Position numbers and translations under genes: made by a program
Assembly (NCBI GenBank): GCA_963705105.1
Contig: CAVPIW010000012.1
Coordinates: 160,001 to 224,000 of the forward strand
Length of the DNA stretch: 64,000 nt
From: an uncultured Nitrospiraceae bacterium
GTDB lineage: Bacteria > Nitrospirota > Thermodesulfovibrionia > Thermodesulfovibrionales > Dissulfurispiraceae
Direction of reading: 5' to 3'
The notes under the pieces: model-generated
The model's database searches: none
Told to the model about the DNA's origin: nothing
The model's input: only the letters and a program-made list of their open reading frames with translations
Shown here: positions 8,079 through 31,030 of the stretch, one piece after another
Layout of the letters: each line of letters starts with the position of its first letter
Numbering within the stretch: position 1 is the stretch's first letter

Positions 8079-8137
8079 AACATACGGCTCACCTGGAGCC
8101 GGCTTTTTCGGCGATCAGGTGCAGCCGGTCGTTGGGC
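8075..8137 (-). mobile_element. attC site
   Basis: Minus strand GCCCAAC GACCGGCTGCACCTGA...CCAGGTGAGCCG TAT GTTATGC. Confidence 0.9.
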
Positions 8138-8264
8138 AATTGTATCATTTCTTCTCCTTGTCTTCTGTCAAGGGCTGACCCCACTGCTCTCCTTGTTATT
8201 ATTCAGTATTCAGTTTCAGCTTGACAGGAGGAATACAGGATGTCCCCTATTTTCCCGCTCTTGC

Positions 8265-18184: not shown

Positions 18185-18431
18185 CCTTATTGTTGCAGTA
18201 GGATTTCCGGAAAGGCGGGGTGTGGGCGCCGAAAACCCTGCTGCGGCGACACCTTTGCCTTCCCATGAAGACGTTTTCAGGCAAAGGGCTGAAAAAAGTG
18301 ACCCTTTTACGGACACTCACACTGACACTGTTTTTCAGAGCGTTTCGCCCCGCCTTTTCATGCAACAGAAAGATTAACCTTGCCGTTGCATAAGCCCCGC
18401 CTTTCCCGGGAGTGTGTTGCAACGATAAGGT
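18183..18431 (+). repeat. Family A full copy (18183-18375) followed directly by a mini copy (18376-18431)
   Basis: AACCTTATTGTTGCA...TGCAACAGAAAGATT then AACCTTGCCGTTGCA...TTGCAACGATAAGGT. Confidence 0.9.
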
Positions 18432-18475
18432 AAACAATCATGCTCGCTGCAAAATATTTGGACAGGGGTGAAACT

Positions 18476-21049: not shown

Positions 21050-21190
21050 GTTGTCCTCCCTATTAAAGAATTCGCAAGCCTCGCCCCTTTCACGCCGATG
21101 CATCCGGGTTTCGGTCTTCCTGGCGCTGTGCATCGGCGCAGGCGGGAACTTCCGGTCTCTCTCCAGAGCATCCCTCAGAATATCACATTC

Positions 21191-21388
21191 ACATTATCGC
21201 TGCAATACACTCCCGGGAAAGGCGGGGCTGGGGTGAATGCGCCGAAAACCCTGCTGCGGCGACACCTTTGCCTTCCCATGAAGACGTTTTCAGGCAAAAG
21301 GCTGAAAAAGGTGACCCTTTTACGGACACTCACAATGACACTGTTTTTCAGAGCGCTTCGCCCCGCCTTTCCATGCAACAGGAAGGTT
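21191..21388 (+). repeat. Family A full copy
   Basis: Closely similar to the 18183 and 30666 copies. Confidence 0.9.
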
Positions 21389-21554
21389 CAGTAACGCGGA
21401 GGTGGTTGAGTTCTCGCAAAGAAACAAGGAGTTCGTCCCAGTCTTGACCGTCATGTCGATGCCGGGCTTCCTGCGGTTTTCAGGGTACAGGGTTGGAGAA
21501 GAATGACTCTTATATGGTACATTTAAAGAAAGTGACAATTGGGAAGGGAGCATT

Positions 21555-24109: not shown

Positions 24110-24137
24110 CCCGTCCCGCAAAACGAAAAACGATACT

Positions 24138-24350
24138 CAAGACAGTCTCACGCAAAGCCGCAAAGAGCGCAAAGAAAGACAAGACAGTGTGAGTGTCAGT
24201 GTCTGTGAGCGGATCGTCGAATGCCGACAAACGATCACCCTTTGCCGTGTGGACAGACGACAAATGACCGTCAGGCAACAGGCGCTTAACACCTTGAGAA
24301 GTCTCATCATCGCATTGGAAAGGCTTTGAACCATGTTGCCTTCCCGCCGG
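24138..24350 (+). repeat. Composite repeat: C module (24138-24180), GTGTCA hexamers, and partial family B element (~24236-24350)
   Basis: 43-bp match (1 mismatch) to 51764-51806; CCGTCAGGCAACAG..TCATCATCGCATTGGAAAGGCTTTGAACC matches 41948-42012. Confidence 0.85.
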
Positions 24351-24395: not shown

Positions 24396-25994
24396 TTATT
24401 TCTTGGCAGTTTTTATGTCCATCCAGCAGAAGGGGTCACGCTCCGCGAAGATATCCAACCCATAACTGTACGAGACGGCGAGGCATCCTCCGCAGGCGGC
24501 CCTGACGGGGCAGCCGCTGCAGGCGGCGCATCCGTCCCGGTAGCGCCGGGCCTCCGGAGAATCGAATATTTCAAGCAGGCTTTGTTCATAGATGTTGCCG
24601 ATCAAGGAGGGCAGCTTCCTGCAGGCGTGGACCTCTCCGTCGGCGAGGACGGCAACGAAATTGAAAGCCGCGCCGCACCCGTAGCCGGTGCAGCCGCCGA
24701 ACAGCTCCAGGTCGTCGTTATATCGCAGAATATTGATGAGATTGTCCTTGAACTCGATCACGGGATTTTCCTGGGCGGCCATAACGAACTCGTCGAGGAA
24801 CGCCCTGTACTCTTCCGGATCAGGGAGCTGCAGGTTCGCCCCCTCGCCCACCATGGACAGGCGGTTGAAGAGGAACGAGTCCGCCTTCCCTCTCAGCATC
24901 TCTGCAAGGGGTATGATCTCATGCATGTTGTCCCGCGTCAGGGTGAGCATGACCCGTGAGCGGACGCCCAGGTCACGCAGGAGGGCGAGGAATACCTCCA
25001 TCCGCGCAAAATGGCCTTTGCCGCGCATGTAATCGTTGTGTTCGGGCAGACCTTCCAGACTGACCTGGTAGAAGGAAGGGTGCTGAATGGCGATCAGTTT
25101 CTCCATCTGACGCCGTGTGGCAGGATTGCCGAGAATGGCCGTCAGAAAGCCGCGGTCGGCGGCTGCACGGTAGATGTCGTAGAACCGGGGGTGGAGAAAT
25201 GGATTGCCGCCCGTAAAAGACACGGCGCCGGTGACGCTCTTTTTTCCCGCAAAGAGCCTGAGGTCATCGAGCACGCCTATGGCCTGCTCCAGCGTCGGCT
25301 TTTGGCGGTCGCTGCGGTCGTAGCAATGCCTGCACCTCAGGTCACAGGCCTGCGTGATGTGCCACTGCAGGGTGAAGACATCCGTGCAGAGGAGGGCGTC
25401 GTCAACGGGATGACCAGGGGCGAGGATCCGCGGGTCACGCCTGATCAGTGGGGGAGGCGTGAGGAGGATGCCGGCGGAGACGGCATCGTCGATGACCCTG
25501 TCGATGATCCTCGGGGGAAGGCCTTCGGCCCGGGCGACGTCGGCCGGGTCGAGACCTTCGGCGACGATCTTGAGGGCAAGGAGGTCCCTGTCAGAAGCGG
25601 GTCTCATGCGGGCCTCACCGGTCCCTGCGTTTTTCCACAGGAGGACCAGTTCCTCTCCACGCACGGGGACCTCCCCTTTACCTTTCATCATGACAAAATC
25701 GGCGAGGCCGCGCCACGACAAGGGGAGCAGACGGAGACTCGGATTGACCGTCATCCCGTCGACGGCGACGTGTATCTCGGCATGTTGGAGAGCTTTAAGA
25801 TGAAATTCGAGGCGTGAAAGGTCCGCCAGGAATCCGGGCAATGCGACGTCGACCCGCCGGGCCAGTATCTCCCGGAACTCGTCGGGATCTAACGCCTGAG
25901 AATGTCCGCCGAAAAGCTGCTCCCAGAGATCAGGGCCTATGACGGTGCGGCAGACAGGGAATGAATCGTCGGGCTGCAGGTTATCCATTGTCAT
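24396..25994 (-). CDS. sbtM: Radical SAM/SPASM peptide maturase, SbtM (selenobiotic / thio(seleno)oxazole RiPP) type
   Basis: FTLQWHITQACDLRCRHCY; SPASM region GGCTGYGCGAAFNF..CRK..CAACSGC...CGGC..DPFC; long N-terminal extension; directly downstream of a UGA-containing precursor. Confidence 0.88.
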   Translation of the reverse strand: MTMDNLQPDDSFPVCRTVIGPDLWEQLFGGHSQALDPDEFREILARRVDVALPGFLADLSRLEFHLKALQHAEIHVAVDGMTVNPSLRLLPLSWRGLADFVMMKGKGEVPVRGEELVLLWKNAGTGEARMRPASDRDLLALKIVAEGLDPADVARAEGLPPRIIDRVIDDAVSAGILLTPPPLIRRDPRILAPGHPVDDALLCTDVFTLQWHITQACDLRCRHCYDRSDRQKPTLEQAIGVLDDLRLFAGKKSVTGAVSFTGGNPFLHPRFYDIYRAAADRGFLTAILGNPATRRQMEKLIAIQHPSFYQVSLEGLPEHNDYMRGKGHFARMEVFLALLRDLGVRSRVMLTLTRDNMHEIIPLAEMLRGKADSFLFNRLSMVGEGANLQLPDPEEYRAFLDEFVMAAQENPVIEFKDNLINILRYNDDLELFGGCTGYGCGAAFNFVAVLADGEVHACRKLPSLIGNIYEQSLLEIFDSPEARRYRDGCAACSGCPVRAACGGCLAVSYSYGLDIFAERDPFCWMDIKTAKK

Positions 25995-26077
25995 ATAGAA
26001 CGGGAAGAGGCCCGTTCAGGGAACGGGCCCCGGGTGTGTATCAGTCTGGCGAGTGCGAACCGCACTCGGCTGTCATC

Positions 26078-26380
26078 CTATCAACTGCTCTTCGGTGTCT
26101 TTTCCTCCGCAGAACCGGTCGACTTCTTCTCTTCATCGGACTTACCGGGCTGCGCAGGCTTCTTGTCCTTCTCTTTTTCTTCGGTGCTCCCGGCACCCTG
26201 CTGGGAGCCGCCTCAACCGGATTGAGCGGGCTTTTTCTCAGTGCCGCCGGCACTGGGCTGTCCGCTGCCTCAGCCGCTCTGGCTGGCAGCGTAGCTGTCC
26301 GTCGGGCCGAGGTTCGCACCGGCAATCAGGCTCGCGATTCCGACACCTGCAAGGATCTTCATCAGATCGCTCTTGTCCAT
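26078..26380 (-). CDS. sbtA: Selenocysteine-containing RiPP precursor, SbtA type (in-frame UGA at codons 37, 56 and 100)
   Basis: GGAGGTG RBS; my translation MDKSDLMKILAGVGIASLIAGANLGPTDSYAASQSG-U-GSGQPSAGGTEKKPAQSG-U-GGSQQGAGSTEEKEKDKKPAQPGKSDEEKKSTGSAEEKTPKSS-UGA-UAG; absent from the ORF track. Confidence 0.85.
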
Positions 26381-26586
26381 TGTTCACCTCCCTTGCTCAG
26401 AATTGAAATGCTCCGCCTGTGCCGAAGGCACGGCGCTCCGTCTTCCCTGATGATCGGCCGGTATGGGAGAAAAAGGTCGACTTTCCAGATGATGGAATGT
26501 GATACCCCATATTAATGCCGGCCCGATCCCGGCGACTTGTCTCTATAGTACAGGAACCGTGATGAAAATTTCCCATTCACAATCCC

Positions 26587-27072
26587 TCATCCCTCGACGA
26601 TGCCGCGCTCTTCCCACATAAACCAGTTTCCACTATCGTAGAGATAGGAGTACGTGTTCTGAAAGATGGCGAAATGCTCCTCTTCGTCCTTGACGAGGCA
26701 TTCGAAAAAGGCCCTTTCAGTCGGAGAGGAGGCCGCGGCAAGGGCCGTCCTGTAAAAGTCGATCGCTTCTTTCTCCATCGTCATGGCGGTCTCGAGTGCG
26801 GAGATTTCGTCGGCCGTCGAAGCGACCTGTTGCAGCATCGTTTCTTTGTGCTGCTCAAATATCTCCTTCATGTCCTCCAGTGGTGTCGCATCGGAGGGTT
26901 TGAATTCGCCTCCCCGCGAGACCTGGATCGCGCACTCCTTGTGGTATTGCTCATCTTCAGCGATACTGAGAAACATCTTTTTCCCGACGGGGTTGCTCGT
27001 CTTCTCCGCGCATTTCCTGTAAAAATCGATTGCCTCCTGCTCCATCTTCATTGCCATTTCAACAGTGTCCAT
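26587..27072 (-). CDS. Rubrerythrin/ferritin-like di-iron protein
   Basis: Duplicated AM.ME.EAIDFY...E..H motifs; GGGAGG RBS. Confidence 0.9.
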   Translation of the reverse strand: MDTVEMAMKMEQEAIDFYRKCAEKTSNPVGKKMFLSIAEDEQYHKECAIQVSRGGEFKPSDATPLEDMKEIFEQHKETMLQQVASTADEISALETAMTMEKEAIDFYRTALAAASSPTERAFFECLVKDEEEHFAIFQNTYSYLYDSGNWFMWEERGIVEG

Positions 27073-30279: not shown

Positions 30280-30612
30280 TCACCGCTTCTTCAGGTAATC
30301 GCCAAGCAATCCCCTGCTGTGCTCGTCGTCGTGGCAATAGACGCAGAGGTTCTCCCAGTTGGAGCCGTCGGGGGGGTTGTTGTGATGGTTCCCGTCCCTG
30401 TGATGGACCGTCAGCAGGCGCCGGTCCTTCTCCTCGAACTCCCTGCCGCACTTGGCGCAGATGAGGCCGTGTATGCGGAGTGACTGCTCCCTGTAGTCAC
30501 CCGACCGCTGGCCCGCCTCCTTCAGTTCCTTCACGATTTCTTCCACGGACTTGCCGCTGTCCTTCTTCGGGGACGTCTTCATCCTGAAATCTTTCCGACC
30601 GTATTTTCTCAT
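30280..30612 (-). CDS. YajD-family HNH nuclease
   Basis: CAKC..LTVHHRDGNHHNNPPDGSNWENLCVYCHDDEH. Confidence 0.9.
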   Translation of the reverse strand: MRKYGRKDFRMKTSPKKDSGKSVEEIVKELKEAGQRSGDYREQSLRIHGLICAKCGREFEEKDRRLLTVHHRDGNHHNNPPDGSNWENLCVYCHDDEHSRGLLGDYLKKR

Positions 30613-30665
30613 TATGGATTCTCCCCTTTCCTCTCAGAATGCAGAACAGACAAACATATAATATT

Positions 30666-30864
30666 AAACCTTATCGTTGCAATACACTTCCGGGAAAGGC
30701 GGGGCGTATGCGCCGAAAACCTTGATGCGGCCACACCTTTGCCTTCCCATGAAGACGTTTTCAGGCAAACGGCTGAAAAAGGTGACCCTTTTACGGACAC
30801 TCACACTGACACTGACACTGTTTTCAGCGCGTTTCGCCACGCCTTTCCATGCAACTACAATGTA
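30666..30864 (+). repeat. Family A full copy (reference copy)
   Basis: AAACCTTATCGTTGCAATACACTTCCGGGAAAGGCGGGGCG...CGCCACGCCTTTCCATGCAAC. Confidence 0.9.
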
Positions 30865-31030
30865 AAGTGTACCCGATAATCGCCGGAGATTCAAAAGCAC
30901 ATCCCTGCTGAGCGATGCCGGGGCCTCACATCAATGGGGGAGGCTCCGTGTGGCGGACATCACGAGGCATCACGTTGAGGGTACCAGTGAATTGTTGCTT
31001 CAGAAAAGAGCTATGAGCTAAGGGCGGTGC

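Follow-up and report, generated by a model that had tools for sequence, protein, structure and literature searches.

The locus described here, read on the minus strand of a 64,000-nt stretch of DNA (hereafter the window, meaning that whole stretch), is, as judged from its sequence, an sbtA gene, which encodes the precursor in the known SbtA/SbtM system, and its reading frame contains three UGA codons, the last directly followed by UAG. A SECIS-type hairpin lies behind every one of the three, and all three UGAs are therefore likely to be read as Sec. We hold it highly probable that the third UGA encodes a C-terminal residue, Sec100, with UAG as the true stop, and there is a strong likelihood that three Sec residues are presented in a substrate of the maturase SbtM.

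The sbtA gene and its decoding

26386..26394, minus strand: Shine-Dalgarno-like purine run 5′ of the sbtA ATG, read off the sequence
26078..26380, minus strand: sbtA, RiPP precursor of 100 aa matching TIGR04081, with three in-frame UGA codons (U37, U56, and U100) and then TAG
26288..26380, minus strand: sbtA leader (TIGR04081 leader), residues 1–31, hydrophobic in its core, its end predicted to be of the signal-peptidase-I type; exact cleavage site putative
26270..26272, minus strand: UGA1, Sec37 in motif SGUG, from the frame translation
26213..26215, minus strand: UGA2, Sec56 in motif SGUG, from the frame translation
26078..26083, minus strand: UGA3-UAG, likely C-terminal Sec100 (motif SSU) and true stop (UGA3 26081–26083, TAG 26078–26080)
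24396..25994, minus strand: sbtM, radical SAM/SPASM maturase of 532 aa (TIGR04082, 698.6 bits versus a cut-off of 350)

The precursor open reading frame (ORF) runs from the ATG at 26380 to the TAG at 26078 and gives 100 residues when TGA is translated as U. Its TIGR04081 score is marginally above the cut-off (30.7 versus 30.5 bits), and a protein database search with the precursor returned five candidates, none of them at E ≤ 0.01. U37 and U56 are each found in the G-rich Cys/Sec motif SGUG, which is among the motifs given for TIGR04081 in the available text of PMC13188914, and U100 is found in SSU, a common family variant. The initial annotation, which did not identify the locus as the known SbtA/SbtM system, gave correct product lengths of 36, 55, and 99/100 aa; the three UGAs share one frame. 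The sbtM gene is on the same strand, 83 nt downstream.

The genome encodes selA, selB, and selD, all scoring above their family cut-offs, and tRNA-Sec, and the G-loop hairpins at its own selD, fdhA, second molybdo-enzyme, and mvhD are positioned at +18, +19, +19, and +24 by hand count. Following established bacterial decoding, SelB with Sec-tRNA(Sec) would bind the G-loop hairpin when the ribosome is at a UGA and deliver Sec; at UGA3, the hairpin would act from the 3′ untranslated region (UTR), Sec100 would be added, and UAG as the next codon would terminate translation. Where Sec was not delivered, UGA would act as a stop and give shortened by-products. Going by in vitro work on a homolog, SbtM would form seleno-oxazoles by oxidizing Gly-Sec37, Gly-Sec56, and perhaps also Ser-Sec100, and it probably grips the precursor via a DUF2063/RRE-like N-terminal domain. 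SbtM has been assayed on Gly-Cys/Sec substrates (PMC9204691), and the available part of that account includes no Ser-Sec-COOH substrate.

Metatranscriptome contigs cover sbtA and hardly cover sbtM; the runs were chosen by their match to sbtA, and the coverage therefore gives no ranking of sbtA and sbtM expression. Several other features surround the gene. A GC-rich hairpin (26411–26432, minus strand) lies about 30 to 50 nt before the sbtA start, and a stem overlapping it was called terminator-like. A rubrerythrin/ferritin-like gene (26587–27072, minus strand) is found directly upstream of sbtA and is not a recurring neighbor. Copies of a dispersed non-coding repeat, seen in ORF translations, occur at 18200–18440, 21140–21400, 24110–24330, and 30600–30900, and similar sequence is found behind the paralogous sbtA and before selD.

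Hairpins downstream of the three UGA codons

26239..26255, minus strand: SECIS-type hairpin 1, 7 bp, loop GGC, 21-nt spacer, −11.3 kcal/mol
26183..26197, minus strand: SECIS-type hairpin 2, 5 bp, loop CGGGA, 20-nt spacer, −7.9 kcal/mol
26186..26208, minus strand: competing fold after UGA2, the stem named in the initial annotation, 14-nt spacer, mutually exclusive with hairpin 2
26050..26068, minus strand: SECIS-type hairpin 3, in the 3′ UTR, 8 bp, loop GUU, 20-nt spacer, −12.6 kcal/mol, no U-tail
26009..26029, minus strand: fourth hairpin, 9 bp, between sbtA and sbtM, not called a terminator

The three stems quoted in the initial annotation (26239–26255, 26186–26208, and 26050–26068) are each present on the minus strand, once in the window, and its claim of a hairpin after each UGA holds in that sense. 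Their UGA-to-loop spacers are 21, 14, and 20 nt. The published bacterial SECIS consensus (PMC13188914, Fig. 2A, in its available form) specifies a loop of 3 to 9 nt, a stem of 4 to 16 bp, a spacer of 16 to 37 nt, a G at loop position 1 or 2, and an energy of ≤ −7.5. When each UGA site is tested against our own implementation of this model, akin to the folding check that the initial annotation had proposed, all three sites pass with hairpin 2 placed at 26183–26197. A SECIS-type hairpin thus follows all three UGAs, but the fold originally given for UGA2, stem 26186–26208, fails because its 14-nt spacer is below the 16-nt minimum.

The model is permissive, being passed by 108 of 400 ordinary TGA stops, and the stability of each hairpin taken singly is modest relative to shuffled sequences (z of −1.05 to −2.86). 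The significance of the hairpins derives from position and a common core rather than from single-fold stability. The loop G lies at +22, +22, and +21 from UGA1, UGA2, and UGA3, and a profile trained on 59 internal hairpins taken from other genomes places the three sites within the top 3, 1, and 46 of the 157,854 TGA triplets of the genome, the sites themselves being counted in these ranks. Hairpin 2 (26183–26197) is the best profile match in the genome, yet it is the weakest fold of the three.

Two overlapping stems compete after UGA2. In naked RNA, the stem at 26186–26208 is the fold of lowest energy, with a pair probability of 0.95 to 0.97; the pair probability of hairpin 2 is ∼0 in the full naked RNA and 0.02 to 0.03 when folded from +12 to +67. 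The first 8 to 12 nt after a UGA would be covered by the ribosome, and with these nucleotides excluded, 26183–26197 is the best fold in 40-nt windows. The 26183–26197 stem also has the core common to hairpins 1 and 3 and to the three hairpins of the paralog. As modeled, the SECIS after UGA2 is this overlapping stem and not 26186–26208.

A terminator scan of 25800–26700 called two terminator-like sites, and hairpin 3 was not among them; the initial annotation was right that it has no U-tail. Rfam searches over the same interval gave nothing meaningful, only one 16-nt match with an E value of 0.9. Among homologs, the hairpin translated in frame appears as a recurring peptide, GAG(S/G)T.

Homologous loci were collected by SbtM searches of genomes and metagenomes. 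These gave 101 precursor ORFs from 97 of 122 loci and 52 more from 80 metagenome loci, the latter forming a held-out set; first-set counts refer to 96 distinct precursors, with two run-on ORFs (L041 and L061) dropped. A stricter hairpin test was fixed after the first set had been viewed; it demands a stem of ≥5 bp, an energy of ≤ −5 kcal/mol, and a loop G between +18 and +24. Hairpins passing this test follow 113/144 internal UGAs, 55/58 last UGAs located one to five codons before the stop, and eight of nine UGA-plus-stop ends (the window counted in); for UGAs soon followed by a second UGA, the figure is 6/13. They follow none of the 22 Cys codons of all-Cys precursors and 6 of the 21 in mixed precursors. 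Stops of long ORFs pass at 81/1,581 (TGA), 37/581 (TAA), and 36/554 (TAG), and TGA-TAR tandems in the genome at 2/22 and 7/145. The held-out precursors gave 56/67 for internal UGAs, 41/44 for last UGAs, 3/3 for UGAs with another close behind, and 0/12 and 1/12 for Cys codons of all-Cys and mixed precursors, respectively. Neither of two held-out UGA-plus-stop ends passed; both are U-S-UGA-UGA ends in which the hairpin fits the earlier UGA, and the held-out set contains no clean case.

These counts bear on the idea that near-cognate or special tRNAs insert Cys or Trp at the UGAs, or that sbtA is a decayed pseudogene. All-Cys homologs of sbtA do occur in the survey, and the TIGR04081 score of the window's precursor barely exceeds the cut-off, as either idea would allow. 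However, hairpins follow UGA and not Cys codons, the Sec machinery is complete, SbtM is intact, and close relatives in RNA libraries have no listed difference at the UGAs or hairpins, so that we regard both ideas as extremely improbable and decoding as Sec as the preferred reading.

The initial annotation had also proposed that selenium supply sets the ratio of the 36-, 55-, and 99/100-aa products. In its full form, this would make the three UGAs a selenium-sensing device whose products are functional isoforms in a regulated ratio. Sec decoding and termination do compete at a UGA, and pausing at UGA2 is plausible because hairpin 2 is weak and faces competing folds; a premature stop is also the expected failure mode of any Sec codon. 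Against such a device, the number and spacing of UGAs vary freely among the listed precursors (one to five UGAs each), the competing fold at UGA2 was not seen as a conserved feature, and the 36-aa product would keep about five residues, and no Sec, after removal of a leader of ∼31 residues. We found no evidence for a function of the short forms. The proposed selenium control is thus unsupported, an isoform device appears very improbable, and the 36-, 55-, and 99-aa termination products are probably by-products of Sec decoding.

The terminal UGA-UAG

That the third UGA may encode a C-terminal Sec, with UAG as the true stop, was raised in the initial annotation and now appears likely from the hairpins at eight of nine UGA-plus-stop ends, from their spacing, from their occurrence in three clades, and from covariation. 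U or C is found within five codons of the stop in 126 of 146 precursors, 12 of these being Cys. UGA-plus-stop ends with a correctly spaced hairpin of differing sequence are found in three separate clades of a FastTree phylogeny of 148 SbtM proteins, loci without a full SbtM having been left out: that of the window, that of L014, L089, and L122, and that of L060, L065, L074, and L082.

Spacing was informative at precursor ends with the form U-x-UGA. In all 10 such genes, the loop G lies at +18 to +21 from the first UGA and at +12 to +15 from the second; distance therefore separates Sec from apparent stop, with the second UGA as the stop. The single UGA-plus-stop miss in the first set and the two held-out misses arise because the hairpin is spaced to the earlier UGA of a pair. 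At UGA3 of the window, the spacer is 20 nt, within the Sec range and outside +12 to +15.

The initial annotation had named covariation across homologs as a check, and the terminal stem does covary. Among 69 terminal hairpins, left after the mis-registered L015 was removed from 70, all six pairs change on both sides, and none of 500 shuffles reaches the score; the inner four pairs were preselected for pairing, the outer two were not (67/69 and 60/69 paired), and the outer pairs in part share positions with the stop codon. In many homologs (for example, L018:3816–3834), the TAG stop codon itself contributes to the 5′ arm of this terminal SECIS stem.

There are precedents for this arrangement elsewhere. 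According to the available text of bioRxiv 2022.07.06.499078, three SaoC proteins end in UGA-UAG with a 7-bp GGU-loop stem, and in E. coli a C-terminal Sec was supported by a 3′-UTR SECIS (PMC10778597, in its available part). A literature search, mainly of open-access papers, found no paper on C-terminal Sec in SbtA.

The genome has a second sbtA (contig C17, L001:7795–8034, minus strand), which encodes a 79-aa precursor with three UGAs and a lipobox-like Cys and has its own sbtM. Its last UGA is likewise followed by a 3′-UTR hairpin, the SECIS lying beyond the TAA stop. At L012, L111, L113, and L121, two sbtA genes are found per sbtM locus, only one of them with a lipobox-like leader, which is the same pairing as that of the two separate sbtA loci of this genome. 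A palindrome, ATAG-N7-CTAT, is found in 22 of 144 sbtA upstream regions and at the paralog (L001, about 8110–8150) and was not found upstream of the window's sbtA. At L199:1899–2346 (plus strand), an SbtA-type leader and Sec motifs flank an insert with a CxxCH heme-binding motif.

The main alternative is that UGA1 and UGA2 encode Sec and UGA3 is a plain stop, giving 99 aa, with hairpin 3 a relic, a stem protecting the 3′ end, or a distal server of the upstream UGAs. A relic is conceivable, since the 3′ hairpin can outlive its UGA, being kept with no UGA at SECIS distance in four homologs (L042, L048, L147, and L214), or stand behind a Cys codon, as in some Cys-codon ends (6/21 and 1/12 in mixed precursors). 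All-Cys precursors lack the hairpin (0/22 and 0/12), and it is therefore not a general end-protecting stem. Two RNA contigs, X2 and X3 (two of four runs), terminate at 26071, 3 nt short of hairpin 3, and count in favor of this alternative; these ends could be explained by a strain variant at 26070. Contigs X1 (26038–26307) and X4 (25969–26409), from the other two runs, extend through hairpin 3, and their listed differences avoid every UGA and hairpin.

The distal option has a parallel in a group of 12 loci (L018, L025, L027, L033, L042, L048, L147, L168, L181, L182, L192, and L214), which were chosen by this trait and form exactly one SbtM clade with support of 1.0. There, no hairpin passing the SECIS model follows 21 of the 24 internal UGAs, and one follows each of the eight last UGAs; a conserved 3′ hairpin, kept even where the last UGA is missing, lies 56 to 179 nt downstream of the UGAs that it appears to serve. 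In five genomes of the clade, all seven selD/fdhA-type sites, from 13 loci, carry a local SECIS, and selB was found in four of the five. These data suggest that in this clade one SECIS serves distant UGAs. Pairing by fold-back receives partial support from a duplex-energy test, in which 5 of 17 sites beat 95% of shuffles versus 21 of 147 elsewhere. The literature search, again mainly open access, found no paper describing bacterial SECIS elements that act at a distance.

The window does not use the distal-SECIS route: UGA1 and UGA2 have hairpins of their own, and no sign of fold-back pairing was seen at them, with 88 and 78 of 100 shuffles being as stable. The 20-nt spacer at UGA3, unlike the +12 to +15 of all 10 apparent stop UGAs, is in the Sec range, SSU fits the C-terminal Sec/Cys site of the family, and hairpin 3 lacks a U-tail. 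On this evidence, a plain stop at UGA3 is highly unlikely, and Sec100 is the reading that we carry forward.

SbtM, a possible metal-binding role, and comparison with known systems

The N-terminal ∼190 aa of SbtM fold like NGO1945, a DUF2063-RRE partner protein. A model of residues 1–200 (25395–25994, minus strand; pLDDT 92.5) matches NGO1945 (3DEE) with an E value of 5.4e-6 and a TM score of 0.61, and TglHI chain A also matches. A profile of this region detects a 251-aa DUF2063 protein that has no radical SAM domain (E value of 6e-21, 38% over 135 aa). A direct Pfam DUF2063 match is found in only 1 of 52 SbtM members, and the profile gave just two weak, unrelated matches against PDB sequences. 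Atlas matches of 0.76 to 0.78, two of three naming NGO1945_C/HvfC, are below the reliable range and serve as a lead only.

DUF2063-RRE proteins are partners of MNIO enzymes that make 5-thiooxazoles, and MNIO targets include copper-binding bufferins with signal peptides (bioRxiv 2024.03.18.585515 and PMC12452194, available portions); papers from the MNIO field cite the SbtM product for its spectra, as far as their available text goes. Among SbtA homologs, a lipobox-like Cys at positions 24–31 was found in 99 of 149 by regular expression alone, and by the same means the remaining leaders, including that of the window, mostly end in small residues. The N-terminal fold of SbtM together with signal-peptide-like leaders therefore suggests an anaerobic selenium metallophore. 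The sbtA leader would double as a signal peptide, and the exported product would bind soft metal ions such as copper; by analogy this is possible, with the balance tilting somewhat against it.

More tentative, and on the doubtful side, is the joint reading, again by analogy, in which SbtA/SbtM would be the counterpart of the bufferin/oxazolin metallophores that uses selenium and works without oxygen: a radical SAM enzyme carrying a fused DUF2063-RRE domain would make a seleno-oxazole peptide that chelates Cu, Hg, or As in the periplasm of anaerobes, and the window's copy would end in a seleno-oxazole formed from the UGA-UAG-encoded C-terminal Sec, with its SECIS in the 3′ UTR. We infer that SbtA/SbtM may work like the MNIO systems while not being a member of them, since its modifier is a radical SAM/SPASM enzyme.

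Gene neighborhoods at 160 loci provide a weak hint of a metal role. The recurring neighbors were DUF547 (18 loci), an FAD oxidoreductase of the MerA/lipoamide-dehydrogenase type (12), and a VTT protein (9), and arsenosugar-type glycosyltransferases (TIGR04282/TIGR04283) were near sbtM at nine loci. No conserved copper-gene neighborhood was detected among the recurring neighbors scanned, nor was any universal partner gene detected in the survey. At L200, L175, L165, L153, and their relatives, sbtM is found beside DUF547, the FAD oxidoreductase, TIGR04282/TIGR04283, and VTT genes.

The SbtA/SbtM system, its SECIS elements, and C-terminal Sec encoded by UGA-UAG have each been described already, and the core finding is therefore unsurprising. 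Its use is practical: gene callers take the first UGA of an sbtA precursor as its end, and at peptide ends the spacing rule distinguishes Sec from stop. As a short natural message with multiple UGAs, the gene lends itself to studies of how bacteria decode these together and of whether SbtM can act on a C-terminal Sec. The biological role of such clusters is generally unknown (PMC9204691, in the part available), and the partner-domain fold and signal-peptide-like leaders provide a testable function, metal binding outside the cytoplasm.

The closest known system is the "selenobacteriocin" SbtA/SbtM (TIGR04081/TIGR04082) of Haft and Basu 2011 and Lewis et al. 2021, as presented in the available parts of PMC9204691, PMC11002830, and PMC13188914. 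There, Geobacter SbtM converts Gly-Cys/Sec to thio(seleno)oxazole; the precursor contains two or more Sec residues, and a SECIS follows its UGA. The window shares with it the precursor leader, the G/S-G-U-G motifs, the SECIS after UGA, and an adjacent radical SAM/SPASM maturase that scores above the cut-off. Unlike the described precursor, for which the available text of PMC13188914 gives two Sec, the window's has three, the last being C-terminal and in an S-S-U context, and its relatives are found in Nitrospirota records whereas those described are from Geobacter. The signal-peptide-like leader and the DUF2063/RRE-like domain of SbtM seen here are absent from the available portions of the published descriptions compared.

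SaoC and the KCU-star selenoproteins (bioRxiv 10.1101/2022.07.06.499078, as available) resemble the window in their UGA-UAG end, C-terminal Sec, and 7-bp G-loop hairpin in the 3′ UTR, and signal peptides are present in SaoC. They belong to unrelated families, end in Cys-Sec where the window has Ser-Sec, and undergo no radical SAM modification in that account.

The bufferin, oxazolin, and gonophorin systems (available portions of bioRxiv 2024.03.18.585515, PMC12452194, and bioRxiv 2025.11.18.689057) share the type of heterocycle, repeated Cys motifs, and the DUF2063-RRE partner fold; their precursors bear signal peptides and include some lipoprotein forms, which the SbtA leaders may parallel. 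No MNIO (DUF692) or DoxX family gene was detected among the recurring sbtM neighbors scanned. Modification in the bufferin-type systems is by an iron oxidase (MNIO) acting on Cys, whereas here it would be by a radical SAM/SPASM enzyme acting on Sec, and the partner domain, a separate protein there, is fused to the enzyme in SbtM.
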